Shown: positions 1 to 58,480 of the stretch, in pieces
How the letters are laid out: each line of letters starts with the position of its first letter
Position numbering within the stretch: the stretch's first letter is position 1
Origin: Styela clava
Lineage: Eukaryota
Assembly: GCF_964204865.1 (NCBI RefSeq)
Contig: NC_135250.1
Span: 8,866,001-8,930,000 of the forward strand
Length of the DNA: 64,000 bases
Direction: 5' to 3'
Notes under the pieces: generated by a model
What the model saw: only the letters and a program-made list of their open reading frames with translations
Told to the model about the DNA's origin: nothing
Database searches by the model: none
Program-made: the position numbers and the translations under genes

Positions 1-2651
1 AATAAGGTTTAAAACGTTACTATGAAGAAAGGAAAGGTAATGCAAAGATAAGGACATGCGTCGCTCACTCATAGGTATATATGCTGCTAGACTTCTACTG
101 CTTGAACATATATGCAACACGCCGCGGTTTCTTGGAAGCAAAATGCTCAATAACGCGCTGGTTAAAGTCATGCATCCCAGAAATAACGTCTCTGTGAATG
201 GATAAAACAGCCAAGGAATTTAATCTATCTTGCTTCATTGTGTTTCTGAGATACGTTTTAATACGCTTCAGCGTGCTGAATGTTCGCTCTGCGTCGGCGG
301 AAGAAATAGGCGTCGTCAAAATGATGTCCCGAAATTTTGCAGACGCCGCAAAGGTAGTTACTAGAGTGTTATCTATGAGGAACCCATAGAGCGCGCAAGT
401 TGATGTGATGTTCAAAAAAGTTTGATTGGTGTATATACATCGCAATTCATTTTCCAATTTACCCACGTTCATCATGGGGTAAAATTTGGAGACAGTAGCC
501 AACAAATGGATGGGAAATTGACGTGCAAATTTTGAAAAAATTTTGGGGTTCATCAAAGAGAACGCGGCAAGGTGTTCAGTGCGCAGACGATCGCCTATTC
601 GATTCACCAGAATGTCACAGCATTTCTTTGCAGACAAAATCAAACGCTGCGTTGTTTGCCCGCGGCGTAAAGAAGCACTTCATGTGTCGTCGTATTTTAT
701 TGTTTCCCGGATACGAGATACAGCATCGCAGAAGTCTGAAATACACGACTGCACAGACGCTCCATCCATTAGCCTTGACTGCAATGCGCCGTATAATACA
801 TCCACGTGATAGAATATTGTGGAGAAAAAATGAAAACTCACCATCTTCTAGCAGACGCTTTAGACCTGCCGCCTCCCTCACAGAGCGTTCGTCCCAAACC
901 GGAGAGCTCTGAATGCCATTGAAACACTCAATGAGCTCAGACTTAATTTCGGACACGCCCTGCACCACGCGTGATTGGAAGTTCCAACGTGTTGGTGCAC
1001 AAGCTGGGAGACGGCGGCTACATATCTGGCGAAGGAGGTCAGAGCGCTTCGGCGAAACGGAAAAAAATGAAGAAGACCCCGAGACATTTGCAAAACATAT
1101 ACGGACGAGAGGGGTATCAAGACACATATTTTTAATAACGAGGTTAAATTGGTGTGCATAACAATGTAAAAAATGCGCATGAGGAAAATCTTCTTTTATA
1201 TAAGCTTGAACACCATGTTTCGACCCACTCATGACTGCCGCGCCGTCATAAGTTTGAGCTATCAATTTTGACTTCGCGTTGTAAGGCTGTAACACTTCTT
1301 TCAGTACAGCCGATATCCCGCAAGCCGTGCGATCAACGATTGGTACAAAGCTGTGAAATCTCTCGGTAGATTTACCATCTTTCACAAACCGAAAAATCAC
1401 AGCCAGTTGGGAAACGCACGTGATGTCAGTTGTCTCGTCAGACTGAATCGAAAGGAACTGGCAAATCTCAATTTCCAGAGCCAAATGTTGTAAATAAATT
1501 TTATACATTGAGTCGAGCAAATCATTTTGGATATCCTTAGATGTCCCTTTCCAAACAGTTGCGGCATCAAGATGATTTCTCAATACTGTATCTAGGGATG
1601 CGGTGTATTCCATCATATCCAAAAATACCCCTCTATTAGAAGAGCCAGCCTGTTCATCGTGCCCACGGAGGGACAGCTCGTGACAACCAATGAACTTCAA
1701 AACATCTATCAATCGACCGAGAACATGGCGGTTTTTCTCGACGTTTTGGTTGTGCCGACGAATAGAAACCGCGCGTCCTTCATCCATCTGTGCTGCAATA
1801 TTAACATTTCCGAATGTTCGGTATTTTACTGCATTGTCCAGATGCTCCATGGAAGATTGATGATCCCTGGCACGCTCGGAAAGATGTTTAAGATCTCTAA
1901 AACCAAATTTACACCAACGTGAGTCACGGGCGGTAGCAAAAAGTAGGCAATAAAAACAAAAAAGTGCATTTTTGTCCTCGCTGTAACACAACCATTCGTG
2001 TTTTTTATACGAAGTTTCTGCGCAGAATGTACGCCGACGTTGTACCTCTAATTTTTGTTCCAGCGGCAACTGCGAAAACGGAGTGCGAAGTAGTGCATCA
2101 ACCTTATTCATTATGAGGACTAAGGCTAAGAAATGCGAAGCCGGAAAGAAGTGAGGAGCTCAAAAGGAATGTGGAAAATCGAAAGCAAATGGACTAAAGG
2201 TCTCTAACTGATTCAAATAGCGAAACAAGCGACAAAAACGAAGGCGAGGAAACTATCAACTCTTCAAGCAACCAACGAACGAGAAGGAATGCGTGAATAG
2301 GTCAACACGTTGTCGTAAGAAACGTCGGCATTGTGTCGTCATAATTTCGGGGCTAGCCCCGATCGGCCCCGATGATTTAGTAAAAGAAACAGAAAACAAA
2401 CGAGACAAACGCGGCGAGTGGAAGATAAATGAGAGAATACGATATACAATGAGCAACCGGGGCAAAATCGGCGTCGCCCCGTCGACGTTCGGCGAAGGCT
2501 TTGCGAGCGAAAAATGAACCATGTCGGGAGAATATGGCTAGTGTAGACAGTCTGTGCAACCGATATTGAGGTACTTTTCGAATATTTTTTATTATACCGA
2601 AAAAACAACCGGGGCATTGCCCCGGTTGGCCCTATTGACGCGCCGCCACTG
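1..2651 (-). mobile_element. hAT DNA transposon (ZMYM1/DUF4371-type); other end lies left of the window
   Basis: Minus-strand terminus CAGTGGCGGCGCG at 2651, perfect subterminal palindrome CAACCGGGGCA-T-TGCCCCGGTTG at 2606-2628, GC-richer than host DNA, encloses a transposase ORF. TSD cannot be checked because the second end is missing. Confidence 0.85.
95..2111 (-). pseudogene. Disabled hAT transposase (TTF zinc finger, DUF4371, C-terminal hAT dimerisation domain)
   Basis: Motifs WLCYS..FCFYC, LRGHDE, DETTD..QL, YDGAAVMSG, HCYAH, TRW and AERTFSTLKRIKTYLRNTMKQDRLNSLA. Frameshift near 820 (the continuing frame reads STIFYHVDVLYGALQS) and an in-frame TGA at 680-682. Confidence 0.9.
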
Positions 2652-4148: not shown

Positions 4149-5988
4149 TTACTTTGCAAGTTCTTTCAATTTTTCTCTACACATCTGTATTTCTTTCCGC
4201 CTTGTATCCTCGTCGTCGAAATCTTGGGCATCTTCTATCGCAACAATAGCTTTTTCATAAGTCTCTTTCGATTTTGATCGCTTGTTTAGGATATCATACC
4301 CTACCCCTAAGTTATACAGCATGTTTCCATAAATCCGTCGTTGCGAAGCATGCTTTCCAAATTGTTTCTCCATAGCTGCTACTGCTTGTTCACGGAACCT
4401 GACTCCTTTGGAATTGTCTTTTATCATCCAGTAGTTGTAAGATATCAGGGTTATGGCTAATGCTTGCTTCATTACCCGTTTTTCGGGGTCAGCTTTGGTC
4501 TGCTGTTTTATTTCACCAAGTAATTCCACCATATAATCGATACCAAAGTCAATGGCTAGGACACGAGACCTATCACCAGCATTGATCATAGGGCGTGCAC
4601 AATCATTAGCTTTGTGAATACATCTAAAAAGTCCATCTAGTATCTCATCAGGTTCTTTACCCATCAGGTAGATTTCACTGGCTATGGGGAGCATAATCAA
4701 TGCACTGGTAAAGGAAGAATTCCCAATAAGATCGTCTATCAATGCCATTATGTCATCGACATCGGGAAAAGGATCAGATAGAATAATTTTTTTAATTTCT
4801 TTAATAGCTTTCGATGCTTTATTTTCTCTTCCTAGTTGCAAGTAACACACCGCCATGAGTAGCTTAATTCCTAATGTTGTTTCTTCATCTTCTACTGATA
4901 CTTCTTCGAGAGTTGAGATTGCTTCGTAATATTTTGACTGGGATGCTAATGCTCTAGCTTTTTCTGAACAAATAGTAAAACTTGATTAGCAAACAGCCAA
5001 TGTGCGTCGCAACAATAACAATATATATATAGGCTATCACTCTTTGAAAAAACAATATTGTTGTAGTAGACATAATTTTTATCAGGTGCAAAAAACTGGT
5101 TATTCTATTTCAACAATTACAGTCTATTCCATTCAATTTATTAAAAAAAAAACACTTAATTTCTTAGGGCAGTAAACTGCCAAAGTTTGTCCACTTTAAA
5201 TTTATTTCGCATTATACTTGGGTAATTGGATTTGACACTTTCACGTCATTACAGCAACTTTCGAATGCAAAGTACTTTATTTGGAGTAACTTTTGATGGT
5301 GAAAATCAACGAAGTTATACGTATTGATTGATACATTTCGAATGACATTTTATTTTTTTATCATCGTATTATTGACTTGGTTTTACCTCTTTGAAGAGCC
5401 CGAGTCCTTGCCTTTCGACTGTTTGCACCTGCTTCGTCTTTGGAAAGAGTGCTTGGAGACGAAGCGCCTTCTGAAAAAGTATGTGTTCTTATACTGTAAA
5501 AATTTTCAGTGTTTTCTAGTGCATGATCTAGCGTTACAAACTTTGAAATGCTAGATGGATATGTGTGTAGATGTGTTAGCAAATAGGCTGAACAAATCAG
5601 TTTAAAAAAGTAAAATACTTTTGTTGAATGTTGATACCAGCAATCGGCTTATCACTCAGATAAATAGATATAAAACCGGACTCAAGTACACCATATTACT
5701 TACCAATTACTGCTTCCTCAGTGCTTTCAGTTTCTTGTCTGTAGAAAAATTTGAAAATTGATCTCACTCATGATTTTTTCGTATTTGACAATGCATTGCG
5801 TTCACAGGACTAAGTTCTGTCACTGAGTGTGAAAACTCACTGTTATCACTTTATTAGTGTGATTTTCCAATACAGGCTTAATTAAAAGTCGCAGTCATTA
5901 TGAAAGTACCATGCCATTATGTAGCTAACCTGATTGAAACGTTGGAAGCTTCGATCTCGATGTTTTCAATGTTATCTTCAGTAGTCAT
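4149..5988 (-). CDS. TPR-like helical repeat protein A, 302 aa, 3 exons
   Basis: complement(join(4149..4963,5704..5738,5930..5988)); GT-AG junctions, phases 2 and 1, 909 nt in frame. Starts MTTEDNIENIEIEASNVSIRQETESTEEAVIEKARALASQSKYYEA; C-terminal TPR YGNMLYNLGVGYDILNKRSKSKETYEKAI. Paralog of B and C. Confidence 0.85.
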
Positions 5989-7915: not shown

Positions 7916-9085
7916 TTAAAGGTCGACTTGTTTCAACTTTTTCTTGCACTCTTGTATGTCATTGTTTCTCTCCATTTCGGTATCATAATCTTTGGCATCC
8001 TCATATGCTTGAACAGCGTTTTCGTAAGCTTGCTTCGCAAGATCCTTTTTATTCAATATATCGTATCCAACACCCGTGTTGTAGTACAATTTTCCGAGAA
8101 CCCTTTGTTTTGAAGCATTTTTGCCGAATTGCTTTTTCAGTGATGCAATCGCTCGTTCTCGAAGTTTAACCCCTTTATGGTTATCGTTAATCTTCCAGTA
8201 GTCAAACGCCAATAAAATTGTAGCTAAAGCCTCCTTAGTTACTTGTTTTTCTGGATCACATCCTGATGTTTCTCTCAAATCGTCAAGCAATTCCGCCATA
8301 TATTCAATTCCGAAATCTATCGCAATGATACGCGATCTTCCCTCCTTTTCTATCATCGGAGTGGTGCATTCGCTCGCTGCGTGAATACAGCGAAAAAGCT
8401 TATCTATCACATCGTCTGGTGAATCTAACTTTTTGTACATATCACTTGCTATCGGAAGCAGAATTAATGCACATGCATATGATTTACTTTGTATGAAATC
8501 GTATATTAACCCCATGATATCCTCAACATCTGGATTGGGTGCAGAAAGCAAGGCTTTTCTGACGTCCTTCACATATTTCATTGCTTTATTTTCTCTACCA
8601 AGGTACAAATAGCAATGTGCCATCATCAGTTTGGTACTGATTGAGGTTTCCTCATCTGGTATTCCTGTGTCATCAATTAATGAAGCAGCCTCGTAATATT
8701 TTGATTGAGATGCAAGAGCTCTCGCACGTTCTACAAAGTAGAAAAATAGTGTAACATCAGTATAATTTCCAAATCCGTTTGCTATTTACTTGCGATCGTT
8801 ACACTGCTTTTGGAAAATTCCTTGCTAATTGAACATCGTTATTTGTCATAAATCGATCACGAATAGCAAATCAATTTAAACTGAGAAATGCTGATAAATG
8901 CATATTATTTTATATCATACAGATAGAAAATAATATGAAGAGGGTTTTATTAAACATTTTCTTTGAGCTATTTTGAATCCGCGCATCGCAATTATGGCTA
9001 ATGATAATTATCGATTTGAATTACACAGACAAACAAACTTACCTTGTCGTAGAGCAAGTAAAATTGAGTCATCCTTATCCTCCAT
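7916..9085 (-). CDS. TPR-like helical repeat protein B, 285 aa, 2 exons
   Basis: complement(join(7916..8730,9043..9085)); MEDKDDSILLALRQ-ERARALASQSKYYEA. Last exon is 815 nt, the same length and phase as in paralog A. Confidence 0.87.
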
Positions 9086-9745: not shown

Positions 9746-11387
9746 ATGGATAATAACTGCAGAGGTAAGTTACTTGATGTAGGTAAAAAAATATCTTCTT
9801 ATGTATATAGCAAGGATATCTGAAGGGCAGGGTTTTTATTTTTAAATTGGTTGTTATAAATCTAAAACCAGGGCGCCGTTTTGGAATGATTATTTATCAA
9901 TACGGATATAACAGTAAAATGTATCCAAATTAAACGATCTCTAAAAATCTATTTAAAAACTTAATTCTGTACTTTGTATTAGGGTAAGTATTCAGGGTAA
10001 AAATGAGAACTTTTTGCGCGTAGTGCAACGTATTAGACGGAAATTATCGAAATTGAGTCTGTCGCCTAGATTGACATTTCATGTAAGTTTGCTCACAGTA
10101 ATTCGGAAGCTCTCGAATGGTAAATGTTGAGGCGAATACAACCACTGACGCACAGCTAATAAGGCGTTTTCATTTTAGAAAATTAATCTATTTCGTGTGA
10201 TATATATTCTACGAAATAGGTTAATTTTCTGATATATATATTCCATTGAGTGCAGAAAACTTAATCCGCATTCTGATTTTTTTTTCATTTTCGGTTCATG
10301 TTCAGACTCGGAAGAAAAGCATGGCATGGTACAAGATTTTATTTTGGAAGGTAATTTAATCATGTAATATGTTTTGATATAAAGTAACGCGCGTTTTCCC
10401 TCTGCCTCCCCATTTTAAACTTCCTAATACTTCCTAGAAAGAGCCCGAGCTCTCGTGGGTAAATGCAAATATTATGAAGCCTCGTCTCTGCTTGATAATC
10501 TTCGTGATGTGGACAGTGCAGATTTGGATTTAAAACTTCTAATGGCAGAATGTTATTTACAATTGGGAAGAGAAAATAAAGCAGAGAAAATAGAAGGAAG
10601 CATCAGAAAATATTTTATTGGATCAGGATTGGATGTTATGGATGAGATTATTGCCATCGTCGATGTATTAACTGCTGGTCAAGCCATACTTTTGCTTCGC
10701 ATTGCCTGTGATATAGTATTTGCTTCTGCAAAGTCACCTGATGAAGTGATAGAAGGGGTGTACCGCTGCATCGATAAAATGAGAACGTCTATTAGAAAAC
10801 TCCTAGACTCACAAGGCTTGTCATCCCTGTCGATAGAGGGTTTAATTGGGCAACTACAAGGGCAATTTTCAAATCTATTAAGGCCTTTAAAGGCATTGAA
10901 CTCGATCGATTTATTGTCAGAAAGCAACCAAAAACCTATGAATCCAGATTCGACCCGTCTCCAAGTCATTGGATTAGATTTCGGCGTTGATTATATGATT
11001 GAAATGCTAAACAAATTACTCGGAATAGAAGTTGAGAATACGGAGAAAAAAGCTATCAAATTAGCTTGGATTTGCAGTCATATTGGCTATAATCTTGCCA
11101 TTATCAATGACAACACACGTAGCATTAACTTTCGTAAACGTGGTGTCAGTATACTTGAGTCTGAATTCAGAGAGCATGCAAACAAACATAACGTGTATGG
11201 TGTTTTGCTACATAATATTGGAATTGTGCTTGCAAATTCTGGAAGACGTGACGAAGCTGAATACTTCTACATTGAAGCTATAAAAGCTAAAGAGACAGCT
11301 ATTGATTATGGCGACACGAATGAGCAGCAGAAAGATATCAAATTGTCAAGAGATGCTTTAACACGCGTGCGCTCAGGGCCCATTTAA
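9746..11387 (+). CDS. TPR-like helical repeat protein C, 337 aa, 3 exons
   Basis: join(9746..9764,10306..10350,10438..11387); MDNNCRDSEEKHGMVQDFILEERARALVGKCKYYEA. Same phase-1 acceptor before RARAL as A and B; TPR YGVLLHNIGIVLANSGRRDEAEYFYIEAI; about 45-aa insertion relative to A/B. The first two exons are less certain. Confidence 0.8.
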
Positions 11388-17710: not shown

Positions 17711-18733
17711 ATGTCAAAGGTAAGTTTGCTTTACTTGAATTTAAAAATTCTCGGAAGAATACTATAGAGCAAAATTTATAGACTTTTGAATCAAGATCGC
17801 TAAAATAGTCATGCAGGCCAAATAGAGGCTATGCGATGTGAGTTGCCAGTAGATCTAACTACTTATAGAAGTACCAGTAGACACTTTTGCATTCTATTAG
17901 ATGGGAGTAAAAAAAATCCTGGAACTTTTTTAGGGTATTCACTATGATTTGTTATATCAGTCTATGAACAAAATAAATTAAAAAATAAATTTTCTTTAAT
18001 TTATTTTAATGTGGTAATCTGGTAAATATTTCTAACATTAAATCATAATAATCTTGTTTTAGGTAACATGTATAATTCAACTGCTTTTTATCACAATCGT
18101 AGCGGTCTCCGTCCAAGATGTTACATGTTGGGATCCATTGTAAGAAATTATATTATTTTGAGAAACTAGTTCTTGTGTAGAACAAAATATCGTGCGGATA
18201 GCCTATATATCTATTCATATTAGAGAAGAGTTTACAAAATCTGGCTTTAGATTTGAATGTATTTTCGCCATTTTGTTTCTTTAGTTGCCATGCGGATTTT
18301 AACAACCCAAATCAAGTTTGGATTTTCATTTGGTTTATGTTATGCGAGTACACCATAAAGGTTTTGCTGATATTTGTCAAGAGCCCGAATAATCAAAACT
18401 TAGCCTACATTCATGATCATGTTATTCAGTTCAGATGAATCATTGCTTTTTGGCTGTCACATTAAGAAAGAAAGCGAAGTCGCCTTAAACCTGAACTCGT
18501 TCGAACCAAAGTTGGAAATAAAAGTTGAATGCAAAGAAGGGATCGAATTTACTACTTTCATGTGTCTGCAGTTTTGCTACGATCCAGTCAATCAAAATTC
18601 TCCCAGATCGATTCCAGGCAAAGTCCTCAGAAACAAAGATTTGTTTGAGCAAAAAACGTTTAATACAACGACTCATAAACAAAGAAGAATAAAAGTTACC
18701 TATGGATGTAGATGTGTGTTGGAAGATAAATAG
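17711..18733 (+). CDS. Secreted IL-17-like cystine-knot protein 1, 129 aa
   Basis: join(17711..17719,18063..18139,18430..18733); phases 0 and 2. Signal peptide MSKVTCIIQLLFITIVAVSVQDVTC, then WDPF...FGC-x24-C-x10-C-x3-C-x43-CRCV. The gene model is strongly supported by two paralogs; the family call is an inference from P-x7-C and VTYGCRCV. Confidence 0.8.
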
Positions 18734-28964: not shown

Positions 28965-29979
28965 ATGTCTAAGGTAAGTTCGCTTCACTTGATATTGAAT
29001 ATACTTTGGAGAATACTACAGAAAAAAAATTATAGAGTTTTGAATCAAGCTGGCGAAAAATAGTGAAACAGGTTATGAGTCGCCAGTAGATCTAACTCCT
29101 TATAGAAGTACCAGTAGAAACCTTTGTATTCTCTTAGATGGTAATAAAGATGAAGTACTGGAGCTTTTTGGGGGATTCATTGTGATGTGCTTTATTAGTC
29201 TAAGAACAAAATAAATTTAGTTGATTTATTTTTATTTTAAATATTTTTAACATCAAATAATTTTCATCGTCTTTTAGGTAACATGTATGATCCAACTGCT
29301 TTTTCTGGCAATCGTGGCGGTCTCTGTCAAAGACGTTACATGTTGGGATCCCTAGTAAGAAAACATTATGTACTTATTTTATTTTAATGAGATAGTTTTA
29401 GTGCATAACAAACTATCGCGGAATAGTTTATTCAATTTTTTACACTATGGAGATCATATTTCATCCTTTGTTCTGCCAGATTTGAAATTATTTTCGCCAT
29501 TTTTTTTATACCATTGTTGATTTTTTTTTAGTTGCCTAGTGGGCTTTAAAAACCTAAGTCAAGTTTGGATTTTGATTTGTTTCATGTTGTGATATCATAA
29601 TAGTTTTATTAATATTTGTCAAAAGCCCCAAATATTCGAAAATTATTTTACACTCATCATGATCATGTTATTCAGTTCAGATGAATCATTGCTTTTTGGC
29701 TGTCACATAAAGAAAGAAAGCAAAATCGCTTTAAACCTGAACTCGTTCGAACCAAAGTTGGAAATAAAAGTTGAATGCAAAGAAGGGATCGAATTTACTA
29801 CTTTCATGTGTCTGCAGTTTTGCTACGATCCAGTCAATGAAAATTCACCAAGGTTGCTTCCAGGCAAAGTTCTCAGAAACAAAGATTTGTTTGAGCAAAA
29901 AACTTTTAATACAACGACTCAAAAACAGAGAAGAATAAAAGTGACATATGGATGTAGATGTGTATTGGAAAATAAATAG
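28965..29979 (+). CDS. Secreted IL-17-like cystine-knot protein 2, 129 aa
   Basis: join(28965..28973,29278..29354,29676..29979); same exon sizes as paralog 1 (9/77/304); 117/129 aa identical by manual count; AATAAA at 30185. Confidence 0.8.
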
Positions 29980-35615: not shown

Positions 35616-36771
35616 TTAATTGTCACGTTTCCGAGGTCTATCTACCAGGACACATCGGCAGCCATATGTGACGTTTACCCTTCTTTGCGTTCCATTAGGC
35701 AAATCGAAAGTTTTTTCTTCAGACAGATCAACATTTTCGAAAACTGTGTCTGTTTTCGAAACGGGTGACGCTTGTTGAACAGGGTCGTAGCAGAAGTTTA
35801 AGCACATGAACGTTTGGAACTCTATACCGCCATCGCATTCAACATTAACCATCAGTTGCGGTTCAAACGAGTTCATGTTCAACTTGACCTCGCTGTCTTT
35901 TGTTAAGTTACATCCAAATCTTATCGCTTCGGGCGAACTGAAAAAAAATAGAATATTCGTGTTTCTATTTCAAAATTTCAAAAATCACGGATGGGATTAG
36001 TATTTCCGATGTTCAAGCTAGAACAAAACGTCCAGATTGGAATTTTATTCCGTGTGATCCAGCGCCTAAAATTGATTCCAACCAAGACCAAACAGTTCAT
36101 ATTGTAGTTTAGAATAAATGACACATCTACTCTGAAAAACACCTGCAAGAAGTACCACACTAGAATTTTTCAAGTTTATTTATCTGGACATTAATTGGGC
36201 CAGAATTTAAAAATCCAGCTCGAATCACAATTGTATGCAACTTTTCGTTGATAGTGGAATTCAGTACCTCAGCTCAGTTGATTTCCTGTTTCTATTGACG
36301 CAAACGGCTTTAAATCTTGCGTCAATCGGTGGTATTTACCAATGCGCGGTCCTACATTATAACGCTTTTAGTGGCTCTTGGCCTTTTAGTGGTCACCGTA
36401 GCTTCGCTCAGTGATTATCTTTTAAATTGATTGTGTGATTTCTCGTTACTTTGCTTTGAGTGATTTTTCTTAAAAAACATCTCACGCCTTCTTATGTTTG
36501 AACTTTCGAAAATAATAGAAATAAATGGTTTATTTAATATGTTATACCTTTTTCACAATGTAAATACTTGGTAAACTCTAACTAGAAAAATATCTGAATT
36601 ATACATACTTGGGGTCCCAACATGCAACGTATATCGGACCAAAAATCGACATCAACATTGCCATCAGCGGTAAATTGAAAATGCTCCTTATCTGTTAAAC
36701 AATGTTGAAATATATTGCATATTCTAAGTTGAAGGTGACGCTGATTTTGTTTCAACACTTACTTGAGCCAT
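35616..36771 (-). CDS. Secreted IL-17-like cystine-knot protein 3, 137 aa
   Basis: complement(join(35616..35937,36609..36691,36763..36771)); MAQIRSIFNLPLMAMLMSIFGPIYVAC-WDPNSPEAIRFGC...VTYGCRCVLVDRPRKRDN. Same intron phases and Cys spacing as paralogs 1 and 2; N-glycosylation sequons NLT, NGT, NVT. Confidence 0.8.
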
Positions 36772-44061: not shown

Positions 44062-45239
44062 TTGTAGCGAGACAAGATGTGAGAAGTGAGATCCGTGATT
44101 TTGTTATGTCCTAAAAGTTGTAACAGACATGTTGCCATTAAGTGCATACCGTGTGCTATATTTCACCCATTCTTGGATTAAACTAATTCTCTTTGCTTGA
44201 ACTAAGGCTGGGTTCATTACCAATTTCAAGACTGAGAAGTTAGTATGTTCTTTGCATTAATTTGTCACTTGGCGGGCGCACCAAAAAACAAACATAATGT
44301 GTCGCTTTGTGATCCGCGAGCCGAGAGTTTGTCATACCTACGCTGCAGTAGGTGATTGACGTCTGTGCTTGTACGCTTCATACCGTTGACTTAGCACTGC
44401 GTCTTGAAGATGTCATTTGCAAAGCTGCCTTGGTTTTGTAAAATAAGGTATGTATTATTTTGGAATGAGCGAAGCCCTTGAATTATAGTGCATCTGTTGT
44501 AATAATCTGTTGAACTAGGCCTAGTTGTAAATAACCCCAAAACTTACTAAAAAGTCCAAACATCTACCGACAGTCAGTCACTGTGGCCGAGCGAGAGCTG
44601 ATAAAATTAGATATGTAACAGACTATATATATTATGCTGACTGGTTTCTACGCTAAAACCAATTATTTGAAGGTCAAGCTAGTCTATTAGGCTACGAGAC
44701 AAAGTCTTGAAGACCAGTTTCGTAGCGACCATGAGATGAATAAGTAAAATATAGGGGTTTTGTATGAAAATGTACGCGTGTCAGCTCGACTCCCGATAAT
44801 ATTCGTTTAAATCTACAATGCAAAGCCTGCTTTCAAAACGATTCTTTTAACAACATGCAGCTGCTGTAATTAATTTTCAGTTAGCACAGACCTGGCAATG
44901 GAAGATAATTTTGTATGAAAAATACCTCTTAATTTGATGCAATTTTATTGCAATGAAAATGTGGGTGCTTGAATTAGTAATGAATGAGTGAGAATAATTT
45001 TGAAGACATTTGTACGTTTACGTATAGTTACTTATGACAGGTTGAGGTTCCAAAAAACATGCCACAAGGTATGATGCAGGCCAAACCGACGAATGAGTCA
45101 CATACATGCTATATTTGAAATGACTTAAAATGGTACTTTACAACAGACTTTTGTGTGTGTACTTTTGTTTTAAATGACGTTGAATAAAACCTAAAACAAT
45201 GTACGACTGTCATTAGATATTTTCGGACTAAAATATCAT

Positions 45240-48200
45240 TTATAGTTCAATTTTAGTATGGCCAGGATTTTGGTAGGATGCAGACAATCGTTTGCAATCT
45301 GTTGGGTATAGCTTCAACAGCTCCCATCCACCACCGATTTCTTCAAGTTCGTTTGTTGCAGCGGCGACCTGTTCCGGTTGAGATTCAGGCGACGGCACAA
45401 AAACAGTTACGACTCTTTTACCTGCAACGAAAGTATGTCTGATTCGTGTAAGTTGATAAATTATCTATATTGTGAAATTTTATTCATAGGGTGTTATTTT
45501 GTTTGTTAGTTTATTCATCCAAGTTAATATATACACATAACATACCTGTATGGCCACAACATGTAAGCTTCATTGCGTAGTTTTTGTAGTCAGATACCAT
45601 CACAAAGTCTGAGCTTTCTCTGTCATCTTGGTATAAGGTGGGAAAGAAATATGTCAGAATTGAAGGAAATGAATGTAAAAAAGCAAAGAAGTCTGAAACA
45701 CAAAATACAAAAATATGCTGGCAAACGTGTGAACGCAGTCCGAAATTTCAGTTGGCATCAAAGCGTTTAAATTAATTTCAATTTTGATATGTGATATGTC
45801 GGGAGGCAAAGTCAGTTAGGGGTTCAAACAATATATATTACAATCAGACCCAGTTAAAATCTTGATCTCTGCTATTGGGCCGAGGCCCCAAAACAACCCC
45901 CTTTGCTTTATTACACTTCAAGTCCAAGATATCGTATTGTAGTATAATATGTATTGTGTTATATATGGCTACAAGCCTAATCACAATACAATTATTACGC
46001 ACATTTTCGATAAAAGAAAAACTGAATCAAGTGGAATAGGCCGATAAAATAGAGCTCTTGTTTACAAGGTGCAACTAAATCCTATTATGTACACGCTGTT
46101 TAATTAAATCTCTAATCATATAAAAAATAGCATCCAGACTCGACAAAAATTCAAAAAAACTTACTGCCACCCTGTTTCTCCGTAAATCTAGAATTTCCAA
46201 CTTTCTTGTATTCCTTGTGATCTTCGCTATGGGAGTGTTCATCTCTGAAACAAAGATGCAACATAATTTAAGAAGTTGAGCGCACAAACAGAAGAAGCGA
46301 GCCAGTGTTATAAGAAAGAGAAAAGAACTTTTCAAAGTGCAAAAGATGAAGGAAAATAAAAAGAGACTAATAAAATTAAATTCGGTTTAATTTTATTTTT
46401 CGTTTTGAATGCTCAGACAAATCAAGTATGCTGCTCAAATGTATTGCTGTTATAAAATTCCAGGTTTTTCAATTTATATATAATAGGTTTTTAGTGATAT
46501 TCAATTTAAACCAAAAAGGTAATAAAGGCGAAAGTTTAAGAGAATGATGAACTGAGACAATACAAAAAACGATTGTATATATACCCAAATTTGGTGTGTT
46601 CTATTGCGACTTTTCCGCCGTCACTTGTTCCTCCAATATCTTTGTATGCAGTACAGCCACTAATTTCATGGGACTTTCCAGCGGTGTACCAGGTACCTAG
46701 AAGCTGATATGCGGTATTAATAATATTAATTACAAGTCAAAGCGCGAATTAGAGAATTTAATCCTAACTGAACAACTTTACAAACCTTTTCAAATTGAAA
46801 TCCTTTGGTAACATCTGGTAGAGTACATTTTGAGTGTCCATGGTTTTCACTTTCAACAACCACATCGTGAATGTCATAATTAACATTTGGTAGGTTTTTG
46901 CATTCAGTAGGATATAATTTCACCAGTTCCCAGTCATGTCCGATTTCTTCTAGACGATTAGTTGCTGCTGCAACTTGTTCGGGGAATGATTCTGGATTCG
47001 GTGAAAAAATATCTACAACCTTTTCGCCTTGAAATAGAAAAAATATCCAGATCAGTCTTGATCTACATGTATATTATATTTTTAAAATATTTGTCTTTTA
47101 CCTCGACACAAAAATTGAGACTCCTTATTTTTATTAATACTTTTATACTTATATTATATTGTTCAATTGTATAGGGCAAACATACATTCTACCGATATTC
47201 AACTACTCGATTTTGATACTTAATATGTCGTATTTGAAATTGCGTCAAAATTTTTCCACCAATAAAACTGTAATACGAATTAAATTCTATAAGATTATTA
47301 CTGGTGATGAAGGGATTGGCAAAATGAAATCGATTTGCCTAAAAACTGAATTTGGTGGTACACAAATCTATTGAGATATATATAATTAGAGTTTCTACAA
47401 TTCCAACAGGCTCCAAACAACTAAAATAATATGATCAATTTCTAAACTCACCACTGTGATGATCGCATATCAGTTGCAATAAATAGTTTTCGTAGTCAGA
47501 AAATAAAACAACTTCTACAACATTTCCTGAAAAAAAAACTATCAAATTTACTAGGATGAAAATTATTCTGATTGATTGGTAGTCCATTGCCCAGCCTGAC
47601 GCATGAAGGATTATGGATACAATATAAACGAAACGCAAGTAACAACGTATTAGCATGATTCCCTCCTTAAAACATGTTTTGTAACCCAAGCGCTGCCACA
47701 TGAAATCAGACATTTGAATAATAGAGGATATTTGCATGAATGCATGATGCAAAAAATACATGAATGTTATATTTTTTCCGACACGAAAGTGTGCTTAACG
47801 ACATTTTTTTATTTTTTTCATTTCCACACAAGTTTCGGTAAACTGCATTCATGTGATACAGTGAGAATTTGCAATTTTGAATGCAAGCTAATTGATTTAT
47901 ATATATAAATTATTATTTCAAATATTATTTTCATAATATCTTACCCAAATGTGACGTCTTTACAAATCTTGAAGGTCCAACTTTCTTTAAATCATAATGT
48001 GTCAACGTGTTTTGAGTTTCATCACTGCATAATGATAAAATTCATAAATAAATTGTTAGGTTACGTTAACACGGTGTCCAGGAAAGGCATAAATAAATAC
48101 AGGACGATTCAGATGACTAGCGACCAAAACATGTAAACGAAATACGGGATTTAAAACGCTACCAAAAAAGTGAGTGAACATATCGGAAAGAATGAAATCT

Positions 48201-51200
48201 TTACTTTATATTGAAATAGTCCGAATCAACTTTTCCAGGACTGACTCCTCTAATGGCAGTACAACCTTTGAGTTGTGTAGATTGTCCAACCATGTACCAT
48301 CTTCCCTTGAGCTGTTTTAAAAATAAATACATTTTTTAAAAGTAAATAAATTTTATCATGCTGCGACCCGGCTCATTTATCCTAATCGGCATAGATTCGA
48401 GCCTGATCTTAATATAAAAAAATGCTGTTCAAAATTATCTGATGTCTGTCAATCAGGTACAGCTAATTCGAAATGCTTCAAAAATAAAATCCGAGTTGTG
48501 GAGGTATGTTGGAGCAGTGATTTTCAACCGGTGTTCCGCGGGGACCTCCAGGTGTTCCGCGAAAAATTGCTTTTTCGAAGTATTATGACGTCTTTCGAAT
48601 AATATAAATAGAGTCGATTTGAAAACGGCGAGTCAGAGTTTTAAAAAGTCGGTATAAAAAACTTGTAACCAGATAAGAAATGACAGGCCATATTCCCTTT
48701 TAATAGACTTTATCTCGACGAGTATTTTTAGTGACCCATTCCATTCTTGACCAAATAATGTTTCGAAAATGTGAACATTATACTCGACCATGAATGGAGT
48801 CATCATCGGAGTTGATTACATTCGTTGCATTTTGAAGCTTTTCTTGCAGTAATAATTAGGGTGTGGCATCATCAAAATCGTCAAGTGAAGTGTTAAATTT
48901 GCAAATTCCGTAAATAAAATTGTGAATTTGTAGGTAACGATTTTAGCTATGATAATGGTCGCGGTATTGTTTTGTTGGGAAAGAAAACGTTAAAACTCGA
49001 GGTGGTTAATTCTAATCAGCATGTAAGATATCGTTAAAGAAGTGCTCTTTATCGTCATCTCGCCTAATGACCACGTAGAAATGTCTTTATTTCAGCTTTT
49101 AAATCAACATTCAGGATTCACGCAATCACAGATTTATCTAATCACAGTATCTAATTGATTTATTCCGGAAATAACACTGACACCAATGTGGTGCATAAGA
49201 AACTCAATTATTGTCTTAATAAATGTGTGCATCCCGTTGTCGATAATGATAATATTATTCGCTAAACTGGGACGTTTAATTTGCAAACGGCGATAAGTTA
49301 GATCTAAGCCAGCGCAAAAGATAAAAATCAGAATAAAATTAAGTTGGAATTTAAAAGCGCTCCATTAATGTCATTAACATCTGTGTCCGATGTGAACGCA
49401 TATAGTTCTACCAAAATATGAAACTTCGATCTCCGCCGATCGACAAGAATTAATACTTGCGCACAAGAACAGTGGCGGTAATATGATAACGTTCAGGGGG
49501 CAAAAAAAGTAGCGATTATGACGAAATTAAACAGTAAAAATCGCTTTGCTGCCAATTTTCAATGTTTCTATTAATTTCCAAATCGACCTCCGACCTTCTG
49601 GACTCCTGTTGCGTATAAAAAAAACGCGAGAAATTGAGAGACGTTGAGAAAGAGCTGCGTGTTTGTCTCTCCTCAATTACAGAATAAAATATTTGAAACT
49701 ATTCGAAACAGACCCAAATATCACACTAAAATACTATTTCTGTTTCTAGCTACCGTAATCATAGTATTCATGAGCAAACTTGCAAAAACATATATTTGTG
49801 CCGTACTTTAGCTCTCGTAGCTCTGAATCGGAATGTGTCACGTCTTTTCCTGAAGTTGACAAGCTATATTACTGATTTCGTTATTTTATTTTCATGCCGA
49901 AATGATCGACGTCAGTTAATTGCATAATATAGTTTATTTCCAAAAATTCCGTTTGGTGTTCCGCCACAATTTCAGATTAAAAAAAGTGTTCCTCGGTACA
50001 AAAAAGGTTGAAAATCAATGTGTTGGAGGTTCAGTCTCTAAAAATATGCTTATACCACTGGTATAAGGACTCATTAGTGTTTTAGACTCGGGTTTACCTG
50101 TTATCAAGACCATTATGAATACGAACCTGGTGTGAAATATACTGCTCCGACACTTCAGGCAATTCACAACTGTTTTTCGAATACGGTATTTTTTTGCAAT
50201 CAGTGGGATAAAGTTTCACTAGTTCCCAACCCTCACCGACATCTTCTAGAGCGTTGGTAGCCGCAGCGACTTGTTCGGGATGAGATTCCGGATTGGGTAC
50301 AAGAACTTCAATGACCTTTTTTCCTGAATATGCATAGTATTTGAATTCAATGTTGAAATTTTTAAGTTACTAGTTTTAATAAAGACGCATCGCGCATTTG
50401 TGATTGAAAAGTTAATAATATTGTAGCAAACGTTTTCATTCCCCACTACTAAAACTAAAAATGTTGGAACGGTAGGACACTGGCCTTCCTGCATTTATTG
50501 CACCGTCCTACCTTTATTATAGCTATAAAGGCAAACTCAAGAAGGTTTTTAAAATTCTCTGTAAATATATTATGAAACATATAACATTGTCATCGTCAAA
50601 ATTGTTTGCCATTGAGTGAGCAGAATACTTCAATATGTTGAATACATAATAACAAACGTGAAATTTACCTGTTTTAGCGTCACAGAACAATTTCATTATG
50701 TATTGCTTAGAATCAGAAACGATTACGAATTCCGGAGAAAATTCTTTATCTGCCAAATAAATAAAAAATGTTTTATAATCAATCTTAAGAAAATTGAAAA
50801 TAGTAGTTAAATTTAGGATAAAATGATTTTGACTATACTAGAGGTGGACGAAATTTTTTTTATAAAGTGCATTATATGTAGCAAAGTACGAATTATATCA
50901 TGTACATAAAAACAAACATATCATCGCTTCAAATATTTTAACTTTCTAATTCAAATCATTGGAATACCAAAATGTATGTTGACCACAAGTCCTACCTTTG
51001 CTAGATTTTACTGCAAATCTGGATTTGCCAACCTTTTTGTACTCGTATTGGAGAATCTCAGTTTTGTGCGAAGCATCACTAAATAATTTAAAAAAATGAA
51101 ATATGCATTTTGGGGTAGATTGTATTTTGTCCAATATGACCAACCCCGTGATATTGTTGACCTTACATCAAAGTCACAAATCGATGTAAATGTTGGCATT

Positions 51201-52640
51201 CGTTATTTTCAGACGTCTAGCTGGTACCTGACATCTTTTGGCGAGAAACAAATTACTTATATTACCGTGAGTTCTCATATTTTTTATTGATCCAAATTAC
51301 CGTGAATACATGCTTATATATCAATTTGTCTTTTATATCAGCTATTTAATTAAGTCTTTAATGCAAATATATATTGATTTATTTTGAAAAATAAGTTGTC
51401 AAAAGACGGACTCTCTGCATTATTGATCAAATATACAAATTGCATCTCACGCAAAATTGTGCAATTCGATATTCACAGTGCCAGTTGTGGTAGTTTGTGC
51501 GTGAAATTGACTGTCGACTCTGCATCTAGAACCTTCAGTATACGACACTCCGACTGTGTACCATTTCCCTTCAATCTGTAATTTTGAGTTGGAGTTCGTG
51601 AAAAATAAACGTAAAATATTTCATTTGGAAATAATACATTTAACATTGAGTTTGTGCACCGCAAATTAACATGATCAAGAACACTAAGGACTAAATTATT
51701 GTATTATATTTGAATATATTCCCCACTGTTTTTTTAAAAAAAAATAGTTTGTCGTATTATATACATTCCATTAAGTATAGTATTGCATATAATACCTGTT
51801 ATTATTCATTGTCCATATTCAATTCATATGTACGGAAAAAAAATTACAGTACATTACATTCAAAGCGTCCCAATTGTTCAGAATGAGGGCAACTTGTTAT
51901 ATAAAACAGGGATAATCAACTATTTTCACTAGAGGTCCGTACACAAAATATTTATTAAATATCACGGTGATCCGGTGATTCCACAAATACATTTTAACTA
52001 TGCAAACAAAATTTCAAATGTATCGTTTGATAAAATACAAGAGCAATGCTCAATATCGCGCTTCGGTGTCAATATAACAAGGTTTCAGTTGTTCAGCTGA
52101 GCGCCGACTTTGCTTGAAAGATGTGAAACATTTGCCACAATAGCACACGTAAATAAATATTTTAAAATCTATATTTGGAATATATTAGTTGCTGAGAGAA
52201 GCGATTTTTCTCCAAGTAATATTAAGAAAACCCACAACGTCCACGAGAATTTCATCAAAACGATTTTTTTTAGTTGTTCACCGAAAAATGCATTACATCA
52301 CGATTGTGAAATAAAAAGAAAACGGTGCATTCAAAGTCAAGAAGCAACTGCGGTCCAAATTTAATACTCGAACGGTCCGGATTCGGACCGCCAGTTGAGT
52401 AGCCCTGATGTAGAAAACTAAATGTTTAATAGTCGAATAAGATTATAATATTATTCCATAATGCATAATATTGTTGATTTGCATGATTTCCACCGACACA
52501 AATTCATTAAAAGTTGGGCTTACTTTGTCAAAATTTAAATCTTCCTTCACATGAGGTAGCGCACAATTTGTGCTTCCATAAACTACGCTGGGAACAGAAG
52601 CTATACACAACAAAACTGCTAATTTTGCCATAGAATCCAT
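45240..52640 (-). CDS. Triple-domain lipocalin (ApoD-like), about 522 aa, 13 exons, signal peptide, C-terminal KIEL
   Basis: Minus-strand exons 52524-52640, 51451-51575, 50996-51078, 50669-50749, 50127-50323, 48205-48311, 47945-48024, 47452-47526, 46786-47027, 46585-46703, 46165-46244, 45546-45626, 45240-45421 = 1569 nt in frame. Each domain has C-x-LP-x-V, G-x-WY, SD(Y/S)xxY..C and PEQVAAATNxLE..WEL.KLYPTxC; intron phases 0,2,1,1 repeat three times. Confidence 0.85.
48515..50020. mobile_element. Non-autonomous hAT (Charlie-like) element, 1.5 kb, in lipocalin intron 5
   Basis: TIR CAGTGATTTTCAACC / GGTTGAAAATCAATG; perfect TSD TGTTGGAG; subterminal GTGTTCCGC repeats. Confidence 0.92.
51907..52407. 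mobile_element. Older hAT MITE in lipocalin intron 1
   Basis: TIR CAGGGATAATCAAC / GTTGAGTAGCCCTG; flanks ATATAAAA / ATGTAGAA (6/8). Confidence 0.7.
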
Positions 52641-56032: not shown

Positions 56033-58480
56033 ATGAAAGTTATCAATCAATTCAATAAACAACCGCATCTAAATTATGGGAAGAACGACTTATTTTGTCG
56101 CAAAACATGCTCAAAAAGAAAACATAAGACAAGAGGAGATCCAAACAATGCAGCCAGAGAAAGGTAATTTTAGTTTTTTCTAATGAATTCTTAACAGGAG
56201 ATTTGCTGCAATTTGATAATATTCCATTTTCATGATTTCAGGAATAGAGTTAAAACGTTGCGAAATGCGTTTACGCAGTTACAGCACACCCTACCATTCA
56301 TTCCTCCAGATACAAAGCTTTCGAAGTTGGACATACTCATCCTTGCCACAACGTATATAAGACAACTTTCAAAAGAATTAGGGACTGACCGTTCTACCAA
56401 GCGATTAGGTGAACTATCGATCCAAATATACCTATTTCATGCAGAATAATTTCCATAAAACTAGAACGTCCTGTTTGTTATTCCGAATTTCTATTTCTGT
56501 CCTAATGTTTTATTTTTATGATGATAAAAATTTTAAAAGTGTAATGTATTCTGAAAATAGTCCTTTCCCCGCTTTATTTCGATTATGACTATGTAGTTTC
56601 GTTTTTGCTGATATTTTGGACAAGAACGTAAGAATTTTGTATTTTTTCCACCTATCTAAATTAATTCGGCAGATCAATTGGAAAAATCTTCGGCTCAGAT
56701 TCGAGAAAGAAAAAGACTTCGTCAGGCCTTACTCCATCCCGTTAAGGTAATTTACAATAACCCACTAACTTATATTCTTTTCAAAAAATAAAGGTTTCAT
56801 ATGTGTTGTAATTGTACAGCTGCACGGCAAAACATATCAATAATTTAATTTTCGAAAGTACTTTCAGGTGTTTAATTCATTGGGCTAAGCACGGGGGCTT
56901 CCACAATAATATGCTGTTTTTTGATGTGACAATTACAAGTAAAACGCGAAGGAGTGTATAGCATCAAATAAGTACATGGATCTTACGCCATTTTTAACAT
57001 TTCTCCATGGATAGGCGTTTTTGATACTATTTTAATGTACAATAAATATTGAAGCAATATATTCCTTTTGATTATCCTAAATCAGTAAATAAAATAACGT
57101 GTACAATAGCAATCGCAAATGGAATAAAAACCACTAATATTTACAATCCATAGTCAATGATGCAAATATGTTTTGATAGATCCGCGTATCTTTCAAAACG
57201 ATCTTTGATTTTAACATTTTGTCCTGTCATCGCTACTCACTTGATCAAACAAAATTACAAAAACTTGCCCCAATGGTTCCAAGTCAGTCGTATTACTTTG
57301 AAGAATGACGAAAACCTATCACGAAAATGGAAATTGAATGATATGTTTTTCCACACATCCATTGATTAGAAACTACTCAGATGTTGCGATTAAAACTAGG
57401 AAACTTACATGGGCATTAAACTGTGACAAAACGGAAGCAACCATCAGAGACTTATAGTTGTGCCCGTCACCAGTGCGCGTGCGAGTAAGAGGCGTCACAG
57501 TCACGTTAGGGATTAATGTTTCGCGGTTCTATAGGCCTGTAAACGTTGCCTACTGTAGCTGGTGTAATGAGCCGTATAAATAAATAGTGCGGTTTTGAAA
57601 TGATGTAATCTTTTTTCTTCGCAGTCCTTTTAAAAACTTGATCATATACTTGTATTCTCTATAGATTTGTATATACAAAATATAAAATAGGTAATACAAA
57701 CCTAAACAAAAAAGCATTTGCATTATTTTTTTTTTGTGCGTGTGTATATATATCGAGGTACGTCAAAGGAATATCGCTTTTGTTCACTTCTTTTATTAGT
57801 GATTTAAACAAGCCAAATTTGATTAACTTGTATGAACATCAGAGAAGTCAAAAATAGTCATTTTTTGAGAATATTCGGAAATCAAACAAGAAATTCAATT
57901 GGTTTTCTCATATTGTGGAAATCGTGGCATATAGCTCATAAACGTTACTCAATAATCTGACTAGTTCTGTGCGACTAATTCTCCCCGTTTGGACATTTTA
58001 TTCATTTTTATTTTTATTTTTTACGGTTTTCCGAACTGGAACAGTGATGGTTTATGCGTGGTATGACTATATTATGTTGGTAGAGTTCCTACTTATATTT
58101 CCTTGATGTCCATTTGTTATCTTTATGTGATTAAATATAATTCAAAATGATTTCTTCAGAAATGGCCGATGAGATCTGCAATTTATTCGAGTATGTCACA
58201 GAAAACTGAAAGTTTCAAAGTGGAATCTATAAACTCAGTTGCTGTCACGGACATAGAATGTGAAACAGTATCAACAATCCATGCAAACATTCCAAACGAG
58301 ACACATAAACTGTCAAATCAGTCTAAACGTATGAGCTGCCATTCAAAATATGAACATTTATACAGAAAAGAGCATGATACGGAAGAATACAACTTACTTG
58401 AATCAATTAATGTTGAATACAAAACATTTGATAACTTTGAGATTTCGTTGGGGCAGGTACCACACAACTTTGTCTGCTAA
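56033..58480 (+). CDS. TCF24: bHLH transcription factor of the TCF24/TCF23 family, 230 aa, 4 exons
   Basis: join(56033..56163,56242..56408,56673..56746,58160..58480) = 693 nt. [45 protein letters not shown] plus the family motif LHPVKKWPMRS, which is restored across the last intron. Confidence 0.9.

Follow-up and report, generated by a model that had tools for sequence, protein, structure and literature searches.

A Styela clava gene coding three tandem lipocalin domains and a KIEL C-terminus through which some of the protein may be retrieved to the endoplasmic reticulum

We examined a 64,000-nucleotide (nt) stretch of the Styela clava genome (assembly GCF_964204865.1, contig NC_135250.1, positions 8,866,001 to 8,930,000), referred to here as the window, and found that its minus strand holds a 13-exon gene for a chain of three lipocalin domains. 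In the model built from coordinates, the gene runs from an ATG at 52640 to a stop codon ending at 45240; all 12 introns have GT-AG ends and the exons join into a single open frame of 522 codons. The product is identical to S. clava XP_039251560.2 (P0003; LOC120329013 isoform X2), which database records list as uncharacterised; as this record was probably called on the same assembly, the match is not independent of the DNA. A signal peptide at about residues 1–22, assigned by eye and by hydropathy (best 19-residue window 1.77), would precede three domains with pairwise identities of 47, 53 and 49%. The 522-residue chain has no second signal peptide, no membrane-length hydrophobic segment after the first and no N-glycosylation sequons. 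Intron phases 0,2,1,1 occur three times in succession, and the domain borders fall inside exons 5 and 9, in each of which one domain finishes and its successor begins without a stop between them. This agrees with the initial annotation, which read the gene as a four-intron module triplicated and fused within these two exons, and which also correctly placed KIEL at the true C-terminus and three His/acidic patches along the chain. Its count of four conserved Cys per domain stood for all three domains, with the correction that domain 3 carries a fifth, Cys459; the mature chain has 13 Cys, an odd count.

Evidence of transcription came from Logan contigs of four of nine runs (three studies; their status as RNA is a guess), aligned to positions 44900-48312. 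Seven of the 12 predicted junctions, those joining exons 6–13, were seen in these contigs, each in three or four of the four runs, and the introns between these exons were almost empty of contig coverage, with splice ends. RNA across all 12 junctions had been proposed as a check of the gene; these seven were seen directly, and exons 1–5 lay outside the region aligned. One 1581-nt contig of run X2 has 918 nt in exons 13–6, which leaves 663 nt compared with the 603 coding nt of exons 1–5, a length that fits a single transcript spanning exons 1–13 but is no proof of one. A second, upstream acceptor of exon 12 (exon start 45692) gives the 544-residue isoform X1, in which 22 residues are added. The short acceptor was used in runs X2, X5 and X6 and the long one in runs X1 and X5 (two of the four); exons 6–13 are spliced, and two isoforms are present. 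In run X1 a contig in the exon 12 extension had a depth of 134, compared with 230 in neighbouring exons. Use of the long acceptor may differ by tissue or allele. The 22 hydrophobic residues enter at the domain 3 junction where the Styela paralogs carry an insert in their E–F loop, and the two sequences are unrelated. A membrane anchor formed by this insert was considered and is unlikely (hydropathy window 1.25).

Table 1. Positions in the window of the exons and other features of the three-lipocalin gene.
Feature	Position	Strand	Content
Exon 1	52524..52640	-	Start codon, probable signal peptide, first Cys of domain 1; then phase 0 intron
Exon 2	51451..51575	-	Domain 1 strands A–C, G-x-W motif; phase 2
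Exon 3	50996..51078	-	Domain 1 strands D–E; phase 1
Exon 4	50669..50749	-	Domain 1 strands F–G; phase 1
Exon 5, fused	50127..50323	-	Domain 1 strand H, helix and last Cys, domain 2 start; phase 0
Exon 6	48205..48311	-	Domain 2 strands A–C; phase 2; junction to exon 7 in 3/4 runs
Exon 7	47945..48024	-	Domain 2 strands D–E; phase 1; junction to exon 8 in 3/4 runs
Exon 8	47452..47526	-	Domain 2 strands F–G, His286, His287; phase 1; junction to exon 9 in 3/4 runs
Exon 9, fused	46786..47027	-	Domain 2 end, His/acidic linker, domain 3 start; phase 0; RNA contigs cover it in 4/4 runs, junction to exon 10 in 4/4
Domain 2–3 linker, residues 335–354	46831..46890	-	Three His; predicted disordered, predicted local distance difference test (pLDDT) <50
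Exon 10	46585..46703	-	Domain 3 strands A–C, His381 in A–B loop; phase 2
Exon 11	46165..46244	-	Domain 3 C–D loop, strands D–E; phase 1
His/acidic patch of exon 11, residues 410–418	about 46217-46243	-	Domain 3 C–D loop
Exon 12, short form	45546..45626	-	Domain 3 strands F–G, conserved Cys458, His461; phase 1
Extra Cys459 codon	45556-45558	-	In exon 12
Exon 12 5′ extension, 66 nt	45627..45692	-	22 hydrophobic residues, domain 3 E–F loop, isoform X1
Exon 13, coding part	45240..45421	-	Domain 3 end, 17-residue tail past last Cys, stop; exon 12 junction in 3/4 runs
KIEL codons	45243..45254	-	Preceding codon polymorphic, Thr or Ala
Candidate poly(A) signal	44944..44949	-	Sole AATAAA/ATTAAA within 540 nt past the stop; 3′ untranslated region covered by contigs

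The chain matched Pfam Lipocalin (PF00061, calycin clan) over two stretches with 34.7 bits against a cut-off of 23 (E 2.5e-8), and isoform X1 scored 41.2 bits; when single exons were scanned with Pfam, exon 8 was the only match (E 0.12). An NCBIfam match to Sp36 was rejected, being under the cut-off with no stretch that passes alone. A profile of 25 Styela paralogs reached bilin-binding protein (E 1.5e-7) and ApoD (E 3.3e-5), and also crustacyanin and insecticyanin. The AlphaFold model, made from 26 alignment rows in which the paralogs were aligned to domain 1 only, had a pLDDT of 72.7 and a predicted template modelling score of 0.45, and DSSP assigned eight strands and a helix to each domain. 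In this predicted model domain 1 (residues 21–184) resembles human ApoD (Z 15.9, root-mean-square deviation (rmsd) 2.8 over 154 residues, 21% identity) and domain 2 (189–338) resembles L-PGDS (Z 14.7, rmsd 2.8 over 142). Domain 3, with its eight strands and helix in the whole-chain model and 49–53% identity to domains 1–2, had an Atlas feature score of 0.90 to a lipocalin cluster. Foldseek placed ApoD second, after a row for transferrin-binding protein B; this candidate, at rank 1 and in several other rows, is spurious (TM 0.12, rmsd about 24). A single-sequence AlphaFold model of isoform X1 was set aside (pLDDT 35.9). The exon model, RNA contigs, Pfam, AlphaFold and fold searches together bear out the view that a single transcribed gene codes three lipocalin domains.

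Kernel lipocalins are defined by three conserved motifs. Motif 1, G-x-W on strand A, is present in all three domains, and motif 2, T/S-D-Y in the F–G turn, is exact in two of them, domain 1 having Ser in place of Tyr. The four conserved Cys lie in ApoD-like positions, and the predicted disulfides presumably pair the first with the third Cys and the second with the fourth, as in ApoD; human ApoD has a spare Cys adjoining its third conserved Cys. The domains thus share with the group of ApoD, bilin-binding protein, crustacyanin and sandercyanin a barrel and helix, the G-x-W and x-D-Y motifs and the four-Cys layout, but differ in having three domains per chain, Pro in motif 3, no sequons, a KDEL-like end and four introns per domain. 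We predict that they are outlier-type lipocalins, structurally nearest to the ApoD/bilin-binding group, and the multivalent small-molecule carrier proposed in the initial annotation is a reasonable reading of the predicted fold. The same annotation took phases 0,2,1,1 to be the usual animal lipocalin pattern, which was right in so far as such phases are lipocalin-like; in Styela, however, two paralogs with introns have these four at matching places plus one more of phase 1 (P0016: 0,2,1,1,1). The pattern 0,2,1,1,1 is also that of the six amphioxus lipocalins in the accessible text of PMC3184775, and of the ApoM and PTGDS genes as far as the accessible sources describe them. In the paralogs the extra intron sets off a 19–23 residue exon between phase 1 introns, which makes up part of an E–F loop insert of about 30 residues; the three domains are without this insert.

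The protein matched 57 places in the genome, 13 of them its own exons, and one paralog matched all 150 places that were scored, out of 287 candidates. The C-terminal part of the domain was found at 158 places (loci L017–L130), of which 65 hold a full domain in a single open reading frame (ORF) and are intronless, and of which 51 lie in a dispersed repeat and the other 107 outside it. All of these are minimum counts; pseudogenes are among them, and any spliced gene might have additional exons. Many of the intronless copies are possibly retrocopies. The family is divergent, with at least 107 places outside the repeat and tandem clusters on contigs C1, C4, C5, C10, C13 and C18. With E values of at most 0.1, Pfam Lipocalin recognised only four of 25 members, and a six-frame search of the genome with the Pfam model gave no matches; since it missed this gene as well, it is unable to count the family. 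No second multi-domain member was found among the 158 places, and none of them reaches more than 26 residues beyond the profile. The single-domain members (P0008, P0009, P0011–P0014 and L017–L130) share with the three domains a C-terminal helix motif and invariant Trp, Cys, Tyr, Asn and Trp columns; they differ in being single-domain, in many cases intronless, and in ending without xxEL. In a 41-row tree (midpoint root, long-branch warning, deep nodes open and without an ApoD sequence), the three domains form one clade (99/93) within the Styela family. The three domains are homologous to one another and belong to this family.

One intronless lipocalin gene of the family occurs in 20 dispersed copies within a repeat (L072–L091, flanks L131–L138) at about 95–97% identity. 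Four copies were extended and remained alike through the greater part of the 10-kb flank on either side, which puts the unit at roughly 25 kb or more. Neither a start codon nor a signal peptide was seen at the ORF starts inspected; there is also a second copy, partial and inverted, and the flanks hold no ORF of 200 codons or more. The repeat looks like a giant non-autonomous mobile element with a pseudogene as cargo.

Outside Styela, a HMMER search against 1.84 billion representatives gave nine matches, namely the protein itself, six Styela paralogs, one moth multidomain lipocalin and P0010, an Ig/PKD repeat protein whose match is spurious. A word-based homolog search returned 0 of 904 candidates though members of the query family are in the collection, and is uninformative; domain 3 searched among shorter proteins gave 0 of 11, and exon 9 among longer proteins gave one of 14, the protein itself. 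The moth protein (P0007, Mythimna separata, 1470 residues) is a polycalin and the best non-Styela match, with E 2e-13 summed over seven stretches, 24% identity and eight Pfam Lipocalin stretches. Polycalins are gut proteins anchored by glycosylphosphatidylinositol. P0007 resembles the Styela chain in its tandem lipocalin domains after a single signal peptide, but it ends in a hydrophobic tail and not in xxEL. In the same tree, with its midpoint root and long-branch warning, Styela domains and three polycalin domains fall in separate clades (99/96), which suggests that they multiplied independently. The polycalin is covered in PMC4985599, as far as its accessible text goes. Another case is a chordate protein, the pufferfish saxitoxin- and tetrodotoxin-binding protein (PSTBP), which the accessible part of PMC6071046 describes as a tandem of two TBT-bp2 units, TBT-bps being lipocalins; it differs in having two units and in being a plasma glycoprotein, and our homolog and profile searches gave no sequence match to it. 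The initial annotation somewhat overstated the rarity of multi-domain lipocalins: one lipocalin cluster in the Atlas, with 91 members that are mainly from arthropods, is represented by a protein of 534 residues, which indicates that long multi-domain lipocalins are not unique. According to the accessible text of PMC8420045, a single lipocalin was detected in Ciona and chordate lipocalin evolution was rooted there. A literature search in which most subscription papers lay outside the scope found nothing relevant on an ascidian or Styela lipocalin family, nor on a KDEL-bearing lipocalin. Neither the fold nor the arrangement in tandem is new; the independent triplication, the possible address to the endoplasmic reticulum (ER) and the hidden family appear undescribed.

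The C-terminal KIEL follows the extended retrieval motif K-x-E-L, with x not Pro, at a predicted free C-terminus of a soluble protein with a probable signal peptide. In the accessible text of PMC2140024, HeLa cells served to test the complete set of AKXEL variants, the -3 position tolerates any residue except Pro, and in human cells a reporter with a K-x-E-L variant is localised to the ER. Ala precedes KIEL in two of six database entries and in two runs, which is the context tested in that study. Judging from the accessible text of PMC8248988, contacts of the -4 Lys, the -2 Glu and the terminal Leu with the KDEL receptor would still be possible. Residues 509–522 have a pLDDT below 50, which suggests that the end is free. 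KIEL is kept in all six database entries, with no listed change in its codons across the three runs covering them, and an ending [KHR]-non-P-E-L is expected by chance in 0.0007–0.0009 of proteins, about 1 in 1,200 (0.004 for a broad motif). A search of the genome turned up a single locus for a KDEL receptor, at C13:4751140-4751952 (L139–L141). Comparable endings belong to the ER-luminal proteins AGR2 (KTEL), ERp27 (KVEL) and MSRB3 (KAEL), which are listed in Table I of PMC2140024 and likewise combine a signal peptide, no membrane anchor and a K-x-E-L end; they differ in not being lipocalins, and in the part of that source available most of them stayed in the ER without the motif and KIEL is absent from the human table. 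Residence of the Styela protein in the ER is plausible, and we consider the chance that KIEL drives a meaningful retrieval to be slightly better than even.

The initial annotation saw in the His/acidic patches a hint of metal binding. His makes up 21 of the 500 mature residues (4.2%), compared with a paralog mean of 2.6% and a maximum of 6.8% (n = 25). Loops were assigned to the mouth of the barrel by textbook lipocalin topology, and with loop limits taken from the AlphaFold model the open-end loops hold eight His in 76 residues, compared with 13 in 424 elsewhere (one-sided Fisher p 0.008, post hoc). Domain 3 has His in three predicted mouth loops together with Cys459. Two of the three patches are in loops with a pLDDT below 50. 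The hint is a weak one: the overall His content is inside the range of the paralogs and two patches are of low confidence, and what speaks for it is the gathering of His and Cys459 at the predicted mouth of barrel 3, which is a lead and no more.

The reading we prefer, to which we give about an even chance, is that one gene makes a chain of 522 or 544 residues, predicted to fold into three ApoD-like barrels whose likely ligands are small hydrophobic molecules, and that KIEL likely returns some of this protein to the ER. The four-intron block would have been tandemly triplicated within the Styela family, with fusion of last and first exons. The signal peptide would take the chain into the ER and the KDEL receptor would bring part of it back by way of KIEL, a retrieval that may be leaky because Ile stands where KDEL has Asp. 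Within the early secretory pathway, the three cups might then serve to buffer or sort lipids, whether oxidised or not, or pigments, and barrel 3 could be tuned or tethered by its unpaired Cys459 and the 22 residues added by the alternative acceptor. Several observations weigh against this. The junction evidence covers exons 6–13, and contigs are not single molecules. The claim of three barrels held for the strands and helix of every domain and for the matches of domains 1 and 2 to known lipocalins, but domain 3 had no match among the best 50 fold-comparison rows and only domain 1 had alignment rows behind the fold prediction. The motif 3 Arg after strand H is Pro in all three domains, which places them with the outlier lipocalins, and paralogs P0016 and P0013 keep the Arg. 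KIEL lies outside the Prosite motif [KRHQSA]-[DENQ]-E-L, with Ile at -3, and so is without the -3 Asp that is joined by a salt bridge to R169 of the KDEL receptor in the accessible text of PMC8248988. With 60 distinct endings in the family, the broad motif would occur by chance about one time in five. An ending x-x-[ED]-[LFM] was found in none of the 158 paralogous C-terminal segments, and the six database entries that keep KIEL are near-identical and all from one species. The homolog search that had been suggested for domain number and terminus conservation did reach the moth multidomain lipocalin; no tunicate orthologue was found among the nine HMMER matches.

An ordinary secreted three-domain carrier, acting in blood or tunic and triplicated for avidity or size, is a serious though somewhat less probable alternative, in which KIEL would have arisen by chance or would have too little strength to matter. 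Lipocalins are extracellular as a rule according to the accessible text of PMC3184775, and the known multi-domain cases, as far as their sources are accessible, are plasma or gut-membrane proteins; these fit secretion, as do the lack of the motif at all 158 paralogous ends examined and the missing receptor contact. The narrow motif, however, arises by chance in fewer than one of 1,000 proteins, K-x-E-L variants did keep a reporter in the ER, and KIEL ends a 17-residue tail that is predicted to be free. We think it quite unlikely that barrel 3 is mainly a site for zinc, copper, iron or haem, formed at its open end by His381, His412, His414, His418, His461 and the unpaired Cys459, which would be compatible with either location. 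Alpha-1-microglobulin and nitrophorin are the lipocalins to compare here. The enrichment of His in the open-end loops and the odd Cys count are what it would explain, but the test was made after the pattern was seen, the paralogs reach a higher His content, the patches are not common to the three domains, His differs between alleles at residues 200 and 338, and neither Pfam nor NCBIfam gave a match to any metal-binding family. It is very improbable that the locus consists of three separate genes of one domain each, or that annotation joined them into a read-through model. It is true that the junctions of exons 1–5 lie outside the aligned region, that intron 5 is the longest at 1815 nt, and that a single domain is the rule in the family, whose members often stand in tandem; against this, there is neither a stop nor a second signal peptide at the domain borders within exons 5 and 9, exon 9 is spliced on both sides in three of the four runs, and contigs extend beyond exon 6 on its upstream side by about as much as exons 1–5 would require. 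A fuller version of the preferred reading, in which an ER lipocalin retrieved by the KDEL receptor arose from an expansion of more than 100 genes, carries a His/Cys metal or haem site in barrel 3 and has the mouth of that barrel opened or capped by splicing, seems doubtful to us.

The window holds several other features besides this gene. Three related Cys-rich exons lie at 18404-18730 (+), 29593-29976 (+) and 35619-35969 (-); we take their ends to recall IL-17 or cystine-knot proteins, and no such match was found in Pfam (two scanned), in NCBIfam (all three scanned) or in one PDB search, which gave nothing significant. Three paralogous single-exon ORFs are at 4152-4985 (-), 7919-8785 (-) and 10428-11384 (+), the first of them with tetratricopeptide repeat matches under the cut-off. 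A basic helix-loop-helix exon (Pfam HLH, E 7e-13) is at 56195-56446 (+), its likely next exon being at 58151-58477 (+). Finally, two ORFs at 98-2159 (-) resemble, we assume, a hAT-type transposase, and gave no significant NCBIfam match.

The single Ciona lipocalin at the root of the chordate survey (PMC8420045, accessible text) compares with more than 100 places in Styela that largely elude Pfam, and one member of this family was triplicated, it appears, independently of the insect polycalins. If KIEL is inactive, the protein would still be an undescribed three-domain chordate lipocalin with a loop switched by splicing. An active KIEL, on the other hand, would give a lipocalin an address of the KDEL type, and to be kept back in the ER would be unusual in a family that is normally secreted. 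Should the ER-resident reading be true, tunicates, which have been credited with one lipocalin, would have evolved a large family of their own, with one member that is intracellular.

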